64,000 bases of DNA from Candidatus Curtissbacteria bacterium (GTDB lineage Bacteria; Patescibacteriota; Microgenomatia; Curtissbacterales; GWA2-41-24), in contig JACPEV010000013.1 of the NCBI GenBank assembly GCA_016183325.1, forward strand, positions 4,837 to 68,836, in the 5' to 3' direction. Of the stretch, positions 3,553 through 52,227 are shown one piece after another (the stretch's first letter is position 1; every line of letters begins with the position of its first letter). The position numbers and the translations under genes are program-made. Under the pieces are notes generated by a model. It was not told the DNA's origin and ran no database searches. It saw nothing but the letters and a program-made list of their open reading frames with translations.

Positions 3553-4056
3553 TTACATTTGTTTAGTTATTTCTGTTATAGCTTTTGAGGTTAATTCTTG
3601 TTTTTCTTGAGTTTTTAGAGTTCGACCTAAAACTTTTTTGACTACTTCTGCAACGAGGACCAGTGTTTCTTTTTCAAGTTGTTTTTGCATCTGTCGCTTT
3701 TGGATTTGAGATTGGGCGATAGCTTCTTTTTTAGCTTCGTCAATCGTTTTTTTGGCTTCATCAAGCGCCTGTTGAGAGATACGCTCCGACTCTTTATTTG
3801 CTTGAGTGATTAATTCTTGGGCACTCTCTCTTGCTTCTTCAAGAATTTGGATGGATTTTTCTTCGGTCATTTTTAGGTTCTTTTCAATCAGATCGGCATT
3901 TTTTAAACTTTCCTCAATTCTTTTTTTGCGATCTTCCAGGGCTTTGGTGATGGGTTTATAAAAGAACTTTTTTAAAAGGAAAAGAATAATTAAAAAGTTG
4001 ACAATTTGGGCAAGAAGGTAAATTGGTTGAATGCCGAAATTATGTAAAATCTCCAT
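3553..4056 (-). CDS. atpF: ATP synthase Fo subunit b
   Basis: 167 aa with an N-terminal TM helix followed by a long charged coiled coil (EEARESAQELITQANKESERISQQALDEAKK). Operon position fits. Confidence 0.75.
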   Translation of the reverse strand: MEILHNFGIQPIYLLAQIVNFLIILFLLKKFFYKPITKALEDRKKRIEESLKNADLIEKNLKMTEEKSIQILEEARESAQELITQANKESERISQQALDEAKKTIDEAKKEAIAQSQIQKRQMQKQLEKETLVLVAEVVKKVLGRTLKTQEKQELTSKAITEITKQM

Positions 4057-4145
4057 AGAAATTTTGGGTTATCAGGTTTCCAGGTAGTCAGGTCGTCGGG
4101 AAACAAAACCTGATTACCCGATAGCCTGAATACCTGATTACCAGC

Positions 4146-4373
<228 letters not shown>

Positions 4374-4405
4374 CTAAGTCACTTAAGTCACTTAGGATAC
4401 TTAAG

Positions 4406-5212
4406 TCAATGCGTTTTCTGCGTTAAGATTACCATAAAAACTAAAGTAAGCATAGAGAAAATTAAGGCTTGGACAAATCCGATCAGAATTTCCAAGAAGT
4501 AAAAAGGGATCGGTACAATAAAGGCAAAAAGTTTTGTTGAGGCGGTTGCCAAAAGGACTTCGCCTGCAAAGATGTTTCCGAAAAGACGAAAAGATAGAGA
4601 TAGGATTTTGGTTATCTCACCGATGATTTCCAAAAAACCGACGAACAGGAAAATTGGATTAAGGCTCAGGAATTTTGCGATATAACCTGAGAGACCTAGA
4701 TATTTGATTGATAAATAATGTGTTGTTACCAGTGAGACTATTGCAAGAGCTACAGTTGTATTTAAATCGGAATTTATTGATCTAAAAAATGGTACGAAGA
4801 CTGGTAGCTGGCCTTCGGCTCTGAGGTCTTCGACTCCGAGGCTCAGACTCGAGGAGCTCAGACTCGAAGAGTTGCTGGTAGCTGGTTGCTGGTAGAATCC
4901 TATAGTGCCAACACCAGGAATTAACCCGAGATAATTGCCAAATAAAATAAAAAAGAAAAAACTGGCTATAATTGGCAAAAAAACTTTAGTTTTGTCACCG
5001 GCTATTGTAATGACTAAATCCTGGAATGACTCGAGCATGAATTCGGCAATATTTTGGAAACCTTGGGGAATGGCGGTAATTTTTTTGGTAGCGGTTAGGG
5101 CAAAAGTGATTAAGATAATCGTGACAAGCCAAGTTGTGAGAAGACTGTTGGTGACAGGCAATGGACCTATTGAAAATAATTTCTCTGCCGCTAGAGCAAC
5201 GTGCGCTTCCAT
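4406..5212 (-). CDS. atpB: ATP synthase Fo subunit a
   Basis: 268 aa polytopic membrane protein with the conserved LSLSFRLFGNIFAGE motif (subunit-a Arg). Confidence 0.85.
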   Translation of the reverse strand: MEAHVALAAEKLFSIGPLPVTNSLLTTWLVTIILITFALTATKKITAIPQGFQNIAEFMLESFQDLVITIAGDKTKVFLPIIASFFFFILFGNYLGLIPGVGTIGFYQQPATSNSSSLSSSSLSLGVEDLRAEGQLPVFVPFFRSINSDLNTTVALAIVSLVTTHYLSIKYLGLSGYIAKFLSLNPIFLFVGFLEIIGEITKILSLSFRLFGNIFAGEVLLATASTKLFAFIVPIPFYFLEILIGFVQALIFSMLTLVFMVILTQKTH

Positions 5213-8012: not shown

Positions 8013-8627
8013 TTGACGGGTTTGAAGTGGCTTGATATAATTCCGATTATTATGAGCAATGTGGAGAGGAATTTTATCCAGAGCAGAGGAGAGTTTTTTC
8101 CCGTAAAGGAGGTTTCAGCCGAGGGTGCTGAGCCGCAAAGTTTACTTGTAGCGCTTCTGAAAACACGGATAGCAGATTTGGAAAGGGCCGTACAGGTATT
8201 AGGGGAAGCTGCGAAGAGGGTGCAAGCTTCGGAGGCAAAAGCTCGGGAAGCTGAACAGAAAGCAACTTCATATGCAACGCGGCTTGGAGATACTTTAGTG
8301 ATTAACCAAAATTTGATTAGAGAGAATCAATCTTTAAGAAGAGAAAATGAAGCAATTAAACAAACAGCTCTTAATGCTGCTAAACCACGTGAACGAGCTG
8401 TGGATCCACGGGATCCACAAGGTTACTATAGAGCATTAGGAGTTGATCCTGACGATGTAGGGAGGATGCCTGTTGATGAAGCTGACGATTACATCACAAG
8501 ATTGTGGCGTACCCATTCAATGGTTCGACATCCAGATCATGGTGGAGATACAAGAAGGCAACAGGTTTTAAATGAAGCTTATGAGTTTTTAAAAAGTCCT
8601 CTTAATAGACGTCAATACGGTAGGTAG
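8013..8627 (+). CDS. J-domain (DnaJ-like) protein with an N-terminal coiled coil
   Basis: C-terminal J-domain YYRALGVDPDDVGRMPVDEADDYITRLWRTHSMVRHPDHGGDTRRQQVLNEAYEFLKSP, with HPD at the expected position. Confidence 0.7.
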   Translation: MTGLKWLDIIPIIMSNVERNFIQSRGEFFPVKEVSAEGAEPQSLLVALLKTRIADLERAVQVLGEAAKRVQASEAKAREAEQKATSYATRLGDTLVINQNLIRENQSLRRENEAIKQTALNAAKPRERAVDPRDPQGYYRALGVDPDDVGRMPVDEADDYITRLWRTHSMVRHPDHGGDTRRQQVLNEAYEFLKSPLNRRQYGR

Positions 8628-8737
8628 GTGATTTGCATCTTTTGACATTGGTTGATATAATTAGAATTGAAAAGTTGCAATGCTCTTTTGAGGTGGATTA
8701 GGGATCGAACTCGCCACCGAGTCAGACTCGGTTACAG

Positions 8738-9001
8738 GTGAGTTTTTTTGTGGGAAAAATTATGATTGAAATGATTTATGGTAACGGAGTACCCCAGGAA
8801 GTTAGGGTTAGGGGACAAAGGTCGGGTCATGTTTGTTCTTTCTGTGGGGATGTTGCTAAACATTCGATAATGGTAAGCGCTTTTTTTGATAATCAACGGA
8901 GCGAAGATTTGATGCGGTTTAGGACTTGTGGGGATTGCGAAGGGTTAAGAACGATAGGTGAACTTTCTGAAGACGACCTGATGTTACGTTATAATAAATG
9001 A
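8738..9001 (+). CDS. hypothetical small protein with two CxxC pairs (possible zinc ribbon)
   Basis: CSFCGD...CGDCEG. No further homology recognised. Confidence 0.3.
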
Positions 9002-9023
9002 CAAGTACCACAAAGAGGAGCAG

Positions 9024-9100
9024 ATGACTAAAAAGAGGATATTGACAGGAGATAGACCTACCGGCAGATTACATCTGGGGCATTATGTCGGCTCGCTTGA
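9024..9100 (+). pseudogene. duplicated N-terminal fragment of trpS (25 codons, ending in a stop)
   Basis: Encodes [26 protein letters not shown]. Nucleotides 9030-9098 match the start of the intact trpS (9694-9772) at all but about four positions. Confidence 0.6.
9030..9098 (+). repeat. direct repeat of about 70 bp (partner 9694-9772) flanking the inserted NYN-domain gene
   Basis: aaaaagaggatattgacaggaga(t/c)agacctaccggcagattacatct(g/t)gggcattatgtcggctc(g/a)ctt is present twice. Confidence 0.8.
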
Positions 9101-9622
9101 ATGAAAAGGAGTAAGAAAACCGTCAAGACTTATGCGTTTGTTGATGCCTCCAATATTATTTATGGAACGCGCGATGATGGATGGAAGGTTGATTTTAAGA
9201 AGTTGTTTAAGTATTTAAAAGAGCGTTATAACTGTAAGGCAATTTACTATTTTGGAGGGGTTGAGAAAAACAACGAAAAACAGCAATCTTTTTACAGGAA
9301 GCTCAGATTTTTTGGCTATGAACTTGTTCTAAAGCCAGTCAAGATCTATCGTCAGCCTGATGGTGGTTCTGTCAGGAAGGCGAATTGTGATGTGGACCTC
9401 ACGTTTTATGCGATGAGAGATAAGGACAAATTCGATCGTGGTATCTTTATGACAGGGGATGGGGATTTTGCAATTCTATTGGAATATCTTATTAAGAGCG
9501 GTAAACAAGTTCAGGTTATTGCAAGTGGCAAGCGTACAGCTAGAGAATTACGAAGGGTGGTAAGAGAATATTTTACTGAGATAGGATCATTGAGGCAATT
9601 ACTTAAGTATAAAAAAAGGTAG
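9101..9622 (+). CDS. NYN-domain (LabA-like PIN-fold) ribonuclease-family protein
   Basis: VDASNIIYG near the N-terminus and [14 protein letters not shown] later, matching the NYN/LabA acidic motifs. Sits between the two copies of the trpS 5' repeat. Confidence 0.6.
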
Positions 9623-9675
9623 ACTCTACGAACGAATCTACCTTATGTTTTATGAAATCAAGATAACAGATATTT

Positions 9676-10764
9676 ATGAATAAGTCAATTGTTAAAAAGA
9701 GGATATTGACAGGAGACAGACCTACCGGCAGATTACATCTTGGGCATTATGTCGGCTCACTTAGGAATCGGGTGAGATTGCAGGATGAGTATGAGTGCTT
9801 CTTTATTATTGCCGATTTGCACACGCTAACAACACGGCCGGGAAGAACCGAAGAATTAAAAGAAAACATCAAACAATTGGTTTTGGATTATCTGTCGGTT
9901 GGGATAGATCCAAAAAAGGCGACGATCTATGTGCAGTCGCAGATACCAGAAGCTGCAGAGCTGGCAGTGATTTTTGGAAATTTGACGACGGTGCCAAGAC
10001 TTGAGCGGGTACCGACTCTTAAGGATGTGATGAGGGATTCCCATATTCAAATTCCGTCGTTCGGACTTTTGGGATATCCGGTTTTGCAGGCTGCCGATAT
10101 TTTGATGGTAAGAGCTAATTTGGTACCGGTTGGCCGCGATCAGGCCTCGCATATTGAGGTAACGAGAGAAATAGCCAGAGAGTTCAACAAGCTCTATGGA
10201 GTTCACATCGGGAAATCCACTCCCGGTGTGAATGAACTACACACCGGGAGTGTAAGCGGGGGAGATGGGCAAGTTTTTCCGATTCCCGAAGCGTTGATTC
10301 CGGAGGATATAGGTACTTTGCCGGGAACGGATGGAAAAGCTAAGATGAGTAAATCTGTCGGCAATGTGATTAATCTTTCGGACGATTCCGAGACGGTCAA
10401 AAAACAGGTGATGGGGATGTACACGGATCCGAAGAGGGTGCACGGGGATGAACCGGGTAACGTAGAGAATAACCCGGTTTTTATATACTTGGATGCATTT
10501 AGTCAAAGTGAAAAGTCAAAGTCGAAAGTAAAAGAACTGAAAGATAGGTACAAAAACGGTACAGTCAAGGATGTCGAGGTAAAAGAGTTTTTGGTGCAAG
10601 TGTTGGAGGAGTTTTTGCAACCACTGAGGGGGAGACGTGAAGAATATGAGAAACAGCCGGAACTCGTAGAAAAAATCTTGAAAGAGGGAACAGAGAGCGC
10701 GCGGGAAGAGGCAAAAAAGACACTTTCGCTTGTTAGAGCTGCAATGAAAATTGAGTACTTCTAA
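9676..10764 (+). CDS. trpS: tryptophan--tRNA ligase
   Basis: 362 aa. Class I HIGH motif [17 protein letters not shown] and KMSKS motif both present. Carries an in-frame insertion of about 20 aa from a palindromic element at 10217-10252. Confidence 0.9.
   Translation: MNKSIVKKRILTGDRPTGRLHLGHYVGSLRNRVRLQDEYECFFIIADLHTLTTRPGRTEELKENIKQLVLDYLSVGIDPKKATIYVQSQIPEAAELAVIFGNLTTVPRLERVPTLKDVMRDSHIQIPSFGLLGYPVLQAADILMVRANLVPVGRDQASHIEVTREIAREFNKLYGVHIGKSTPGVNELHTGSVSGGDGQVFPIPEALIPEDIGTLPGTDGKAKMSKSVGNVINLSDDSETVKKQVMGMYTDPKRVHGDEPGNVENNPVFIYLDAFSQSEKSKSKVKELKDRYKNGTVKDVEVKEFLVQVLEEFLQPLRGRREEYEKQPELVEKILKEGTESAREEAKKTLSLVRAAMKIEYF
10217..10252 (+). repeat. palindromic element family B, diverged copy, in-frame within trpS
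   Basis: ccactcccggtgtgaatgaactacacaccgggagtg encodes KSTPGVNELHTGSV. The B family has arms cccccggggtg / caccccggggg; this copy has arms ctcccggtgtg / cacaccgggag. Confidence 0.5.
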
Positions 10765-10813: not shown

Positions 10814-12751
10814 ATGGCAAAAGTAGAATCGCAAGAGAACGGAAAATTAGCGGGTAGGTCCCCGATACCGCGCGTGCCTTTGCCTAAAATGAACGGTAAA
10901 TCTTCCTGGAGGGGATTTTTGATTTATATTGTTTTGGGATTTATTCTTTTTATTTTCTTCGCGTTTTCTACCAATCCAGAGCAGCGATTTCAAACGGCTG
11001 AACCACTCTCAAAAGTGATTTCTGACATTCGTGACAATAAAGTCGAACAAGTCGAAGTCGATGGGGAGAGAATTTCAGTCAAATTAAAGGATGGTACGGT
11101 TTATGCTTCCAGAAAAGAGGAAAATCAGAGCATGACCGAAATATTGAAAGATGCTGATGTTGATCCAACTTTGGCCCAGATTAACGTTCGTGATCGGACT
11201 TTTTCGCAGGCGTGGATTACAATATTGACCACTTTTTTACCTTTGGTACTAATGGTTCTTTTCTTCTTTTTTATTTTCAGGCAGGCCAGAGAAGGCGCTT
11301 CTTCGGTTTTTGCTTTTGGCCAGTCAAAAGCTAGGCAATTCAGCCGCGATATGCCAAAGGTTACTTTTGCGGATGTGGCCGGAGTTGATGAAGCTAAGCA
11401 AGAGCTACAAGAGGTGGTTGACTTTTTAAGACATCCTGAAAAATATAGAGCAGTTGGTGCAAGAACTCCCAAAGGAGCACTTTTGATTGGGCCAGCTGGT
11501 ACCGGTAAAACACTTTTAGCAAAGGCTGTTGCCGGAGAAGCGGGAGTGCCTTTTTATTCGGTTGCCGGTAGTGAATTTATGGAAATGTTGGTCGGAGTCG
11601 GGGCTGCCAGGGTTCGCGATCTATTTTCCCAAGCAAAAAGAAGTGCCCCGGCAATTATTTTTATTGATGAGATTGAATCAATCGGCAGAATGAGAGGGAT
11701 GGGCTTTTCGGGAGGTCACGACGAGCGCGAGCAGACTCTAAATCAGATTTTGGTTGAAATGGATGGATTTAATCCAAATGATAACGTTCTGGTGATGGCA
11801 GCGACTAACAGACCTGATTTATTGGATCCCGCCCTGACCCGACCTGGCAGGTTTGATAGAAGAGTCACTTTGGATCTTCCTGATATTGAGGGAAGAAAAG
11901 CGATACTTAAAATTCACAAGAAGGGGAAACCGTTTGCGCCGGATGTTGATGACGAGCGGATTGCCAGAAGAACCGTAGGTTTTTCGGGAGCGGATCTTGC
12001 CAATATGTTAAATGAGGCAGCGATTTTGGCGGCAAGAACGGGTAAAAAAGCTATTGATAACTTGGATATTGAGGAGGCTGCCACAAAAGTTAAACTTGGG
12101 CCACAAAGGAGAAGGATGCAATCTGAGGAAGAAAGAAAGATGACGGCATATCATGAAGGAGGGCATGCGCTGGTTGCTCATTTCCTGCCGAATGTTGACC
12201 CGGTTCATAGAATTTCTATTGTTGCTCGAGGCGTGACAGGAGGGCATACATTAGTGCCGCCTACAGTTGACAGGTATACGGAAACTAAGACAAGGTTGAT
12301 GGAAAGAATTGCCACTTTGCTTGGGGGAAGATCTGCTGAGGAGCTGATTTTTAATGAGTTTACAACCGGTGCAGCTTCTGATCTGGAAATTGCATCAGGT
12401 CTGGCCCGGGATATGGTGACTGAGTTTGGCATGAGCGATCTAGGGCCTACCATATTTTCTCCGAGGCCTCAGTTTGGAATCTGGCCGGTGATGGAAGGGG
12501 GAAGTCAAGTGTCACCGGAGCTGGCTGCCAAAATTGATAAAGAGATTTCTAAGTTAATTGATGCGGGGCATAAAAAGGCAAGAGAGTTGTTGCAAAAACA
12601 TAAGGCGAAACTTGATCTTGTCGCAGAGACTCTTCTTGTGAAGGAGACTTTGGATCGAGATGAGTTTGAGAAGCTGGTCGGTAAGCCAGTTTCTACAAAT
12701 GGGGAGATTAAAATTAAGAGCTCTACTTCTGCCAAATCCGTCCAGGCATGA
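10814..12751 (+). CDS. ftsH: ATP-dependent zinc metalloprotease FtsH
   Basis: 645 aa. N-terminal TM helices, AAA Walker A GPAGTGKT, second region of homology (SRH), and zinc motif HEGGHALVAH. Confidence 0.95.
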   Translation: MAKVESQENGKLAGRSPIPRVPLPKMNGKSSWRGFLIYIVLGFILFIFFAFSTNPEQRFQTAEPLSKVISDIRDNKVEQVEVDGERISVKLKDGTVYASRKEENQSMTEILKDADVDPTLAQINVRDRTFSQAWITILTTFLPLVLMVLFFFFIFRQAREGASSVFAFGQSKARQFSRDMPKVTFADVAGVDEAKQELQEVVDFLRHPEKYRAVGARTPKGALLIGPAGTGKTLLAKAVAGEAGVPFYSVAGSEFMEMLVGVGAARVRDLFSQAKRSAPAIIFIDEIESIGRMRGMGFSGGHDEREQTLNQILVEMDGFNPNDNVLVMAATNRPDLLDPALTRPGRFDRRVTLDLPDIEGRKAILKIHKKGKPFAPDVDDERIARRTVGFSGADLANMLNEAAILAARTGKKAIDNLDIEEAATKVKLGPQRRRMQSEEERKMTAYHEGGHALVAHFLPNVDPVHRISIVARGVTGGHTLVPPTVDRYTETKTRLMERIATLLGGRSAEELIFNEFTTGAASDLEIASGLARDMVTEFGMSDLGPTIFSPRPQFGIWPVMEGGSQVSPELAAKIDKEISKLIDAGHKKARELLQKHKAKLDLVAETLLVKETLDRDEFEKLVGKPVSTNGEIKIKSSTSAKSVQA

Positions 12752-51844: not shown

Positions 51845-51916
51845 GGCGCGGTAGCCAAGAGGTAAGGCAGCGGTCTGCAAAACTGCTATACGTGGGTTCG
51901 ATTCCCATCCGCGCCT
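51845..51916 (+). tRNA. tRNA-Cys (anticodon GCA)
   Basis: GGCGCGGTAGCCAAGAGGTAAGGCAGCGGTCTGCAAAACTGCTATACGTGGGTTCGATTCCCATCCGCGCCT. Acceptor ggcgcgg/ccgcgcc, anticodon loop CTGCAAA, T-loop TTCGATT. No CCA is encoded. Confidence 0.8.
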
Positions 51917-52170
51917 CTCTAGTCCCGGTCCTTCGGACCAGGGACCGAGTCGGTTTTGACGAAGTCAAAACCAGACTCCTTCGGACCAGGGACCGAGTCG
52001 GTTTTGACGAAGTCAAAAACCAGACTCCTTCGGACCAGGGACCGAGTCGGTTTTGACGAAGTCAAAACCAGACTCCTTCGGACCAGGGACCGAGTCGGTT
52101 TTGACGAAGTCAAAACCAGACTCCTTCGGACCAGGGACCGAGTCGGTTTTGACGAAGTCAAAACCAGACT
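51917..52170 (+). repeat. tandem array of five 48-bp hairpin-forming units with no spacers
   Basis: Unit tccttcggaccagggaccgagtcggttttgacgaagtcaaaaccagac x5; one copy has an extra a. Each unit contains the perfect hairpin ggttttgac gaa gtcaaaacc. Confidence 0.85.
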
Positions 52171-52227
52171 CCTTACGTTCAGGTCGATTTTAACTTTCAG
52201 TTAAAATTAGACTCCATTATCAGGACC

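Follow-up and report, generated by a model that had tools for sequence, protein, structure and literature searches.

How can a nuclease gene come to lie in the 5′ end of an essential gene and leave that gene in working order? The question is raised by a locus in 64,000 nucleotides (nt) of DNA from a Candidatus Curtissbacteria bacterium (assembly GCA_016183325.1, contig JACPEV010000013.1, positions 4,837 to 68,836; hereafter the window, numbered from its first letter), in which the gene of a LabA-like NYN-domain protein sits between a fragmentary and an intact start of trpS. A reading made from the letters of the window and their open reading frames (the sequence-only reading) had proposed a small cassette that regenerates the start of its target gene, and the present analysis bears this out, since a stub is kept, a new start lies downstream and relatives are empty or filled at the site. 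The anatomy and the mobility of the cassette are well supported. We give an even chance to the fuller proposal, that this is a compact selfish cassette whose NYN gene is a free-standing, homing-endonuclease-like gene of a new nuclease class.

A nuclease gene between two starts of trpS

The features of the locus are as follows.

9014–9104, plus strand: native trpS ribosome-binding site AGAGGAG (9014–9020), start codon (9024) and 26-codon TrpS N-terminal stub
9029–9098, plus strand: first copy of the direct repeat, native trpS codons 3–25
9099–9692, plus strand: unique part of the cassette, 594 nt, with the NYN gene and the 3′ module (bounds from the repeat ends)
9101–9622, plus strand: NYN (LabA-like, PIN-like fold) nuclease gene, 173 amino acids (aa; Pfam PF01936)
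9676–9692, plus strand: cassette-borne replacement start codon and leader ATGAATAAGTCAATTGT (MNKSIV) for trpS
9693–9762, plus strand: second copy of the direct repeat, fused in frame to the remaining trpS
9676–10764, plus strand: functional (regenerated) trpS, 362 aa (Pfam PF00579, expectation value (E) 1e-74)

The direct repeats are 70 nt long, identical at 67/70 positions and spaced 664 nt from start to start; they match each other with a BLAST E of 6e-27 and are the only repeat of this kind around the locus. The sequence-only reading had recognised them, with the downstream end set 10 nt too far (9772) and about four differences counted. The actual number is three, namely 9053/9717 (T/C), 9077/9741 (G/T) and 9095/9759 (G/A), all of them synonymous third-position changes. 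The upstream copy does belong to a TrpS N-terminal fragment, of 26 codons and not of 25 as first proposed: the stub reading frame (9024–9104) begins with MTKKRILTG, the native start of most Curtissbacteria TrpS proteins, those at empty sites included, and its stop codon TGA (9102–9104) overlaps the NYN start codon at 9101 (ATGA). As the stub stop overlaps the NYN start, NYN is probably expressed from the trpS signals and translationally coupled to the stub. The downstream copy opens the intact trpS, as had been read, and the encoded protein is 100% identical to the NCBI entry 'tryptophan--tRNA ligase [Candidatus Curtissbacteria bacterium]'. The essential gene would in this way be kept intact without splicing, by a new start and leader followed by a second copy of codons 3–25. 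The G+C content of the cassette is 36.5%, compared with 45% in trpS and ftsH. These data support the presence of a foreign NYN gene within the 5′ end of trpS, between the original start, of which a stub persists, and a regenerated, intact one. In the window an empty-site junction would read as the native upstream sequence followed by ...GGCTCGCTTAGGAAT, and a circle junction as leader-repeat-GAATGAAAAGG.

The mere presence of a repeat might suggest a collapsed or chimeric assembly. The same repeat-bearing arrangement is, however, present in 5/6 independent Logan assemblies of different sequencing runs (the sixth contig stops before the second copy) and in the NCBI genome, and homologous architecture occurs in other species. 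The arrangement of stub, NYN gene and rebuilt trpS is therefore not an assembly artefact, an explanation to which we give next to no weight.

Filled, empty and decayed trpS sites in relatives

Comparison of the trpS locus between related genomes revealed sites without the cassette and sites filled at the same codon; a collapsed assembly duplication was not found, nor was the same arrangement without repeats in these relatives.

Empty, L090 and L091/L092: native start and no NYN gene, in xerC-divIC ... trpS-ftsH synteny
Empty, P0124 (nearest TrpS neighbour; gene calls only): native start and no NYN gene, again in conserved synteny
Filled, full architecture, L087/L088, L173 and L089: stub ending at the same codon, ATGA overlap with the NYN start codon, rebuilt start
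Filled, contig ending before the stub, L176: NYN of the window type (A type) and leader as in the window
Decayed, L175: NYN truncated at its 5′ end, from a further cassette type with a different hairpin; a relic leader motif lies downstream
Decayed, L178: frameshifted NYN and tandemly repeated leader MNKSINKSIV
Decayed, L174: 3′ module and leader only, i.e. an orphan RNA module
Decayed, L089: frameshifted stub

The NYN proteins of L087, L173 and L089 form a second type (B type), only 33–36% identical to the A type of the window; the TrpS proteins are 78–80% identical. Given the empty state, the filled state with two types, the decayed state and the atypical base composition, cassettes have been repeatedly gained, exchanged and lost at this one trpS site. 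Most close TrpS proteins start with M(x)KKRILTG like the stub, and 6/120 carry the additional MNKSIV-type leader; the leader-bearing proteins are scattered in a neighbour-joining TrpS tree, which is star-like and gives weak support only. A metagenome scan of 80 more distant trpS loci (TrpS identity of 63% or less), which served as a negative control only, found NYN near none of them. A remnant of the last ~45 nt of NYN had at one stage been read in L174; it was withdrawn, as its local alignment score of 19 compares with 15.5 ± 2.4 (maximum 23) in shuffled sequences.

Relic or tandem copies of the right-end motif of the cassette (AATAAGTCA[A/G]TTGT) are seen in the trpS leader of L175 (3397–3510, ..STNKSVV..) and of L178 (3219–3260, MNKSINKSIV), and those of L175 lie downstream of the cassette of different type. 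Such motifs indicate serial insertions at the same trpS site. Other small elements are found close by: ftsH, which adjoins trpS, contains in L089 (6332–9529) an intein with a LAGLIDADG endonuclease and in the window (10814–12751) none, and type II toxin–antitoxin pairs stand directly beside NYN-trpS in L178 (1688–2345) and L179 (2708–3208; Phd/PIN and Phd/YafQ-HigB-like). The neighbourhood of trpS looks like a landing zone for small selfish modules.

Origin of the rebuilt 5′ end

The stub and the rebuilt copy of L087 encode the same 23 residues and differ at 17/69 nt (75% identity), with 17 synonymous and 0 non-synonymous changes. As about 25% of random changes would be silent, the chance of such a pattern is ~0.25^17. 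The two copies are as far apart as trpS genes of different species and, judged by these substitutions, must have been functional gene ends of separate lineages while they diverged. Because they differ so strongly and by synonymous changes only, the rebuilt end of L087 is an imported allele that arrived with the cassette, and the stub is the recipient's own 5′ end; by eye, the sequence upstream of the stub resembles the promoter region at the empty site L091, as one would expect of a native stub. For the same reason, the target duplication proposed in the sequence-only reading stands as a second copy of the 5′ codons, and was probably not made by a transposase or integrase. Stub and copy differ by 12 synonymous and 6 non-synonymous changes in L173 and by 15 and 6 in L089, the non-synonymous ones reflecting added decay. 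The window, with three differences, all synonymous, and 96% identity, would be compatible with a closely related donor, with gene conversion and with a recent event alike.

One could also regard NYN and trpS as an old functional operon that never moved, for instance of an RNA-processing nuclease with a tRNA synthetase, with the stub as debris of a local tandem duplication. NYN does lie directly upstream of trpS in at least nine genomes, and tRNA- and rRNA-processing roles were earlier inferred for NYN proteins from gene neighbourhoods (PMC5499597). Such an operon is nevertheless hard to reconcile with the lack of NYN in the nearest TrpS relative (P0124) and in other Curtissbacteria, with two dissimilar NYN types at one site, with truncated and frameshifted NYN copies, with the 17 exclusively synonymous differences in L087, and with the atypical composition and the occurrence of the same cassette at unrelated genes (see below). 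We consider it very improbable.

The NYN protein and its homologues inside inteins

The assignment of 9101–9622 to the NYN/LabA-like family, made originally by eye, was confirmed by a hidden Markov model search: the protein matches PF01936 with 79.2 bits (cut-off 24.2; E 5.7e-22) over 142/145 profile positions. Its AlphaFold model (predicted local distance difference test (pLDDT) 84.8, predicted template modelling score (pTM) 0.81) finds 2qip (E 8.6e-11, TM 0.75) and the NYN domain of MARF1 (E 2e-4) as best Foldseek matches in the PDB, and a profile of 29 NYN homologues matches 2qip with E 2.9e-12. In these 29 homologues D15, D97, D99 and D122 are invariant and D120 is conserved in at least 90%, and the acidic residues align with the D...D.G and GDGDF motifs of 2qip. 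The protein is a bona fide LabA-like NYN domain with a PIN-like fold and intact acidic active-site motifs. PF01936 was its only Pfam match and NCBIfam gave none, so that it belongs to no recognised homing-endonuclease fold family in these collections.

An exhaustive search of a library of 1.84 billion proteins returned 3,456 cluster representatives of the NYN family. All members whose context was examined are from genomes of the candidate phyla radiation (CPR) and are annotated as 'NYN domain-containing protein' only; the catalogue of the PIN superfamily lists the group as 'function unknown' (PMC5499597). Viral contigs yielded one partial NYN match only, and hence no evidence for a phage vehicle.

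Among its closest homologues are much longer proteins, and in 7/7 long ones tested the Pfam domain Intein_splicing is split by NYN. The nested NYN domains are 36–50% identical to that of the window and are flanked by intein signatures: Cys1 (CVTGDT), block B (NHPY/F) and a C-terminal ...EVEGTHNFVGN..HN|S/T. They were found in P0245, P0253, P0261, P0269 and P0279, from Kaiserbacteria and other Patescibacteria, whose hosts include SMC at its Walker A site and giant surface-repeat proteins, and which are likewise annotated as 'NYN domain-containing protein' only. P0269 is an SMC intein; at Walker A the sequence reads GSGK|C...HN|S, the insertion being at GSGK|S. Three NYN-inteins examined in genomic context (L026, L029 and L031, NYN match at about 4001–4510 in each) are 46–50% identical to the window NYN, closer to it than the B type, and L060 is probably another case.

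What is nested in an intein is, in general, the homing endonuclease domain of that intein. Because related NYN domains occupy this very slot, a homing-nuclease role of the window NYN is well motivated, and we hold it to be evenly poised between true and false. Our search of the literature retrieved no description of NYN domains as homing endonucleases, intein inserts or mobile CPR cassettes, and the cassette appears to be undescribed.

The 3′ module and a predicted small RNA

Between the NYN gene and the rebuilt start of trpS lies a compact 3′ module with the following features.

9616–9644, unstranded: conserved hairpin, stem of 9–11 base pairs (bp), loop TACGAAC (plus) or GUUCGUA (minus), flagged as a minus-strand terminator
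9611–9653, minus strand: predicted RNA of ~41–43 nt, convergent with NYN, 5′-AUAAAACAUAA, hairpin and U-tail (from promoter and terminator geometry)
9660–9688, minus strand: sigma-70-type promoter, -35 box TTGACT (9688–9683), 17-nt spacer, -10 box TATCTT (9665–9660)

The NYN stop codon TAG (9620–9622) lies within the hairpin stem, an A7 run upstream of it provides the U-tail of the minus strand, and the predicted RNA overlaps the last 12 nt of the NYN reading frame. The module is strongly conserved in 19 distinct loci regardless of the neighbouring gene, in the order hairpin, AYGTTTTAT, a spacer rich in A+T and, where the next gene has its start codon, GTCAA(T/G). Across these loci 7/9 base pairs of the hairpin show compensatory changes around an invariant loop, and 87% of the cells are paired, compared with 30–59% when the pairing is slid (0/500 shuffles reach the score). 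The minus-strand promoter has the form TTGAC(A/T), 17 nt, TAnnnT and is perfect (TTGACA-17-TATAAT) in L007, L015 and L018. Over 24 modules of three NYN subfamilies the promoter score averages 10.1/12 on the minus strand, 7.8 on the plus strand and 8.1 in shuffles. The 3′ module is thus predicted to be the gene of a convergent small antisense RNA, in its general form 5′-AUAAAACRU, hairpin and U-tail, ~41 nt in length and overlapping the NYN stop codon. The -35 box falls in codons 3–5 of the MNKSIV leader of the rebuilt trpS. This position explains how the window and L087 can share an identical leader (found also in L176, and nearly so in L173 and L178) when the adjoining coding DNA has diverged by ~25%.

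Promoter and terminator occur together at the NYN 3′ end in 45/74 loci, as against 2/74 for the other strand and 1/66 at a distance of 700 nt. The whole window, searched on both strands (128 kb), contains one other compact unit, at ~5665 on the minus strand, with a promoter score of 11/12, a short hairpin and T7. No Rfam family matched 8600–9900 on either strand at E of 1 or below. Pairing of the RNA 5′ seed with the NYN translation-initiation region was unsupported (mean z -0.23 in 12 loci). An alternative use of the module, as plus-strand terminator, promoter and ribosome-binding site for trpS, was rejected: plus-strand matches equal those of shuffles (7.8 and 8.1/12), and there is no plus-strand promoter at 9623–9675.

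At the other end of the cassette, no conserved sequence precedes the first NYN codons across 17 A-type loci, which leaves the cassette without a conserved left end and NYN without a promoter of its own; the NYN reading frame also lacks a Shine–Dalgarno sequence. No terminal inverted repeats were found at the cassette ends, and the 594 bp contain only NYN and the RNA module and no tyrosine or serine recombinase gene.

A promoter-less reading frame followed by a conserved hairpin would also suit mobilisation in trans, in which NYN is cargo and the hairpin is recognised by a recombinase or transposase encoded elsewhere (Xer, as in integrative mobile elements exploiting Xer (IMEX), an integron-like attC system, or an insertion sequence (IS) enzyme of the IS200/IS605 HUH type). 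A tyrosine recombinase gene does lie ~2 kb upstream, and in L074 an IS200-like TnpA adjoins NYN inside a repeat pair. Yet the recombinase gene (Phage_integrase) is equally present beside empty sites, a role as terminator in a promoter-driven unit explains the hairpin in full, and the cassette has neither a conserved left end nor terminal inverted repeats; the flanking repeats, 22–111 nt long, run from gene start to insertion point wherever the duplicated gene was identified, and no common target sequence and no GTTRRRY-type core were seen. By inspection, the loop and tail (TACGAAC ... AYGTTTTAT) do not fit the attC cores RYYYAAC ... GTTRRRY; IntI was not specifically searched. The Xer/dif-like and attC-like readings of the hairpin were set aside, and mobilisation in trans seems to us improbable.

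Other target genes and cassette types

The A-type NYN gene with the same RNA module is not restricted to this trpS lineage; it was also found directly upstream of the genes listed here, and of further, other genes.

ychF: L014, L016, L019 and L021
trpS of a second lineage, ~37% identical to that of the window: L007 and L179
GT4 glycosyltransferase genes: L017 and L023
Wzy/PMT gene: L015, and L020 by N-terminal similarity

More distant NYN types occur upstream of second-lineage trpS (L030 and L041), era, lepA and gyrA. Flanking repeats, such as those that duplicate the first codons of the downstream gene, were found in five other loci.

L007: 29 nt, MDKKLVYSG stub
L016: 22 nt, at the ychF P-loop; its stub continues in frame into NYN
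L041, L038 and L039, with more distant NYN types: 23, 111 and 66 nt, respectively

The length of the repeat varies and, where the duplicated gene was identified, spans approximately the distance from gene start to insertion point. Many NYN loci have no stub at all. Repeats in L026, L057 and L060 were excluded as cassette duplications, being repeats of large surface-protein genes (L026 is an intein case, L060 probably so). In sequence comparison the window NYN groups with those of L179 and L007, at the other trpS lineage, and the NYN proteins at ychF in L014, L016 and L019 group together.

Several of these loci have peculiarities of their own. A small conserved CxxC reading frame (YFDxCxxCxxMKKAxD...) lies between the trpS stub and NYN in L007 (3400–3515) and L041 (3860–3996), in the latter fused in frame to the stub. 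In L036 (1757–4279) a tandem array of three NYN-family genes is accompanied by a perfect 75-nt repeat of a promoter region, and L074 (3911–5378) has a frameshifted NYN with TnpA on the opposite strand, both inside a 46-nt repeat pair.

How the cassette may spread

If NYN is a homing nuclease, it would help to break alleles that lack the cassette, close to a conserved site that codes for a motif (in TrpS immediately behind HIGH, in YchF at the P-loop), and the break would be repaired by homologous recombination from incoming cassette-bearing DNA. Where homology is confined to the target gene, on the right side, repair would proceed to the left, copying first the 5′ codons of the donor, next the RNA gene and finally NYN, and the product would then be joined to the broken left end; the recipient's own 5′ end would become the stub and that of the donor would serve as the functional gene start. 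NYN expression is probably kept low by the small antisense RNA. Such leftward copying would account for the variable length of the repeats, which extend from gene start to insertion point wherever the gene was identified, for synonymous-only divergence of the copies and for the absence of a left-end sequence, and likewise for the varied junctions between stub and NYN (ATGA overlap, in-frame fusion or spacer) and the many stub-free loci. Natural competence and the retention of recombination genes have been reported for CPR bacteria (PMC12455944), and LAGLIDADG homing is documented in their rRNA genes (PMC11270868).

Several points weigh against this proposal. The immunity of a filled site is left unexplained, since in the rebuilt copy the sequence around the insertion point is again the native one: within 20 nt of the junction, the copies of the window differ by a single nt. 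(Those of L087 differ at 6 of the last 18 nt before it, all silently.) The same site would have to be a target for two NYN types that share only 33% identity, and the insertion point differs between the trpS lineages (codon 25 and about codon 10). NYN identity shows a modest clustering by target gene, with means of 66% for same-target and 62% for different-target pairs, the kinship of hosts being ignored. None of the NYN-family proteins is known to cut DNA, the characterised NYN domains (MARF1 and others) being ribonucleases (RNases), and the window protein is a bare catalytic domain of 173 aa with no obvious DNA-recognition module. The repeats of the window, 96% identical, could equally be a fresh duplication or a result of gene conversion. 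A same-species empty allele was sought as the exact TrpS protein predicted from precise excision and was absent from a collection of 15 billion proteins. Finally, the small RNA is a predicted one.

A different account needs no cutting of DNA. The cassette would be a toxin–antitoxin-like addiction module, with NYN as RNase toxin and the convergent ~41-nt cis-antisense RNA as type I-like antitoxin; it would spread passively by natural transformation and homologous recombination, with the 5′ coding parts of essential genes as homology arms, and persist by post-segregational killing or as a defence. This fits the tight linkage of the promoter–terminator unit to NYN and its rarity elsewhere, as given by the counts above, and the retention of the RNA gene where NYN is truncated or lost (L175 and L174), as in orphan antitoxins. 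It fits, too, the match of NYN to a PADLOC defence-candidate NYN model (E 1.7e-14), the classical toxin–antitoxin pairs that adjoin NYN-trpS in L178 and L179, the RNase activity of known NYN domains (PMC5499597) and the reported competence of CPR bacteria (PMC12455944). It leaves unexplained, however, why inteins have members of this NYN family in the place of their endonuclease and why 5′ sites that code for motifs are preferred, and the recurrence at trpS involves lineages too divergent (~37% aa identity) for recombination-driven spread. Moreover, canonical type I toxins are small membrane peptides, unlike a 173-aa soluble nuclease domain, and the RNA does not pair with the NYN initiation region. 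We regard the addiction module as unlikely, though well within consideration. It and the homing proposal are not mutually exclusive, and both can be partly true.

Returning to homing, we advance one broader suggestion, with some reserve as it is somewhat more doubtful than not: the CPR NYN clade may be an unrecognised family of DNA homing endonucleases with an intein-nested and a free-standing form, the latter taking over the promoter and start of its host gene and giving in return a new start and copied first codons, with the ~41-nt antisense RNA as a check.

Further features of the window

Upstream of the stub, at 8632–8750, a promoter-like TTTGCA-18-TATAAT precedes a conserved segment, GAAAAG..GCAATGYTCTTTTGAGGTGG, and a hairpin that has a T-run. 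The same unit stands directly upstream of the trpS stub of L087; it is a candidate small RNA or leader, without an Rfam match. Within the trpS coding sequence, a perfect 13-nt inverted repeat (10218–10252) is part of an insert of ~24 codons (VHIGKSTPGVNELHTGSVSGGDGQ) at a loop that varies by 0–70 residues among Curtissbacteria TrpS proteins (332–405 aa), possibly an in-frame palindromic insertion. Far from the locus, at 51881–52211, six tandem 48-nt units, each with an internal palindrome (GGTTTTGACGAAGTCAAAACC), form an array that starts inside or just after tRNA-Cys (51845–51917).

Implications

Should the homing proposal prove true, a new nuclease fold would join the homing endonuclease families and might become a source of compact (~170 aa) site-specific nucleases, and a large NYN family would gain a role. 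There would be a third, splicing-independent way, besides introns and inteins, for a homing gene to reside inside essential coding sequence, together with a new small RNA that has no Rfam family, and the cassettes would serve as markers of horizontal exchange and recombination in uncultivated CPR bacteria. In annotation, a short N-terminal 'pseudogene' fragment of a housekeeping gene, or an unusual leader such as MNKSIV, could then be read as a possible trace of such an element.

Comparison with known systems

The window NYN has sequence, fold and acidic motifs in common with LabA-like NYN proteins (PF01936/COG1432; 2qip; MARF1 NYN), which are described as RNases or as of unknown function and are not reported to be mobile (PMC5499597), whereas the CPR clade occurs as mobile cassette and as intein insert. 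With inteins that carry a nested homing endonuclease the cassette shares close NYN homologues, found there between the N- and C-terminal splicing blocks, and the preference for motif-coding sites; unlike them, its NYN is free-standing and without a Hint domain, and the target gene is rescued at the DNA level, by regeneration of its 5′ end, and not by protein splicing. Of the features of transposons and insertion sequences it has no transposase domain, no terminal inverted repeats and no conserved left end, and its flanking repeats measure 22–111 nt.

Phage 21 and e14 in icd, and islands in the 3′ ends of tRNA and tmRNA genes, bring along a replacement gene end and leave the displaced one as a pseudogene fragment, the two copies differing mainly silently. 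They span kilobases, bring an integrase gene of the tyrosine or serine type and depend on a fixed att core, and it is the 3′ end of the gene that they replace. The cassette resembles them in being intragenic, in carrying a substitute gene end and in leaving the native end as a fragment, but it measures 594 bp and has no integrase, the end that it replaces is the 5′ one, start codon included, and its own gene takes over the native promoter. The analogy with elements that duplicate tRNA 3′ ends, drawn in the sequence-only reading, holds for the architecture and no further, in view of the missing integrase and of a tyrosine recombinase that is found beside empty sites as well.

In type I toxin–antitoxin systems (TxpA/RatA and BsrG/SR4; with nuclease toxins, SymE/SymR and RalR/RalA) a short constitutive antisense RNA overlaps the 3′ end of the protein gene, with a shared bidirectional terminator. 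The convergent, 3′-overlapping (predicted) RNA, the shared hairpin, the patchy horizontal distribution and the retention of the RNA gene after loss of the protein gene are all reminiscent of these, in contrast to the very short RNA (~41 nt) and to the protein, which is a soluble nuclease domain of 173 aa and not a small hydrophobic peptide.

Free-standing homing endonuclease genes, such as seg and mob of phage T4 and F-CphI of cyanophages, consist of a single nuclease gene, without a recombinase, in or next to a conserved gene; they are polymorphic for presence and absence, are inferred to spread by break repair with co-conversion of the flanks, and their carrier alleles differ by silent changes. 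The cassette is like them in its lone nuclease gene, its site in a conserved gene, its polymorphism and the silent differences between alleles, and in its presumed spread by break repair. It differs from them in the NYN/PIN-like fold of the nuclease, which is not of the GIY-YIG, HNH, LAGLIDADG, His-Cys box, PD-(D/E)XK or EDxHD kind, and in its place within coding sequence, where it comes with a new start, duplicated 5′ codons and a predicted antisense RNA, on the chromosomes of CPR bacteria and not in phages.

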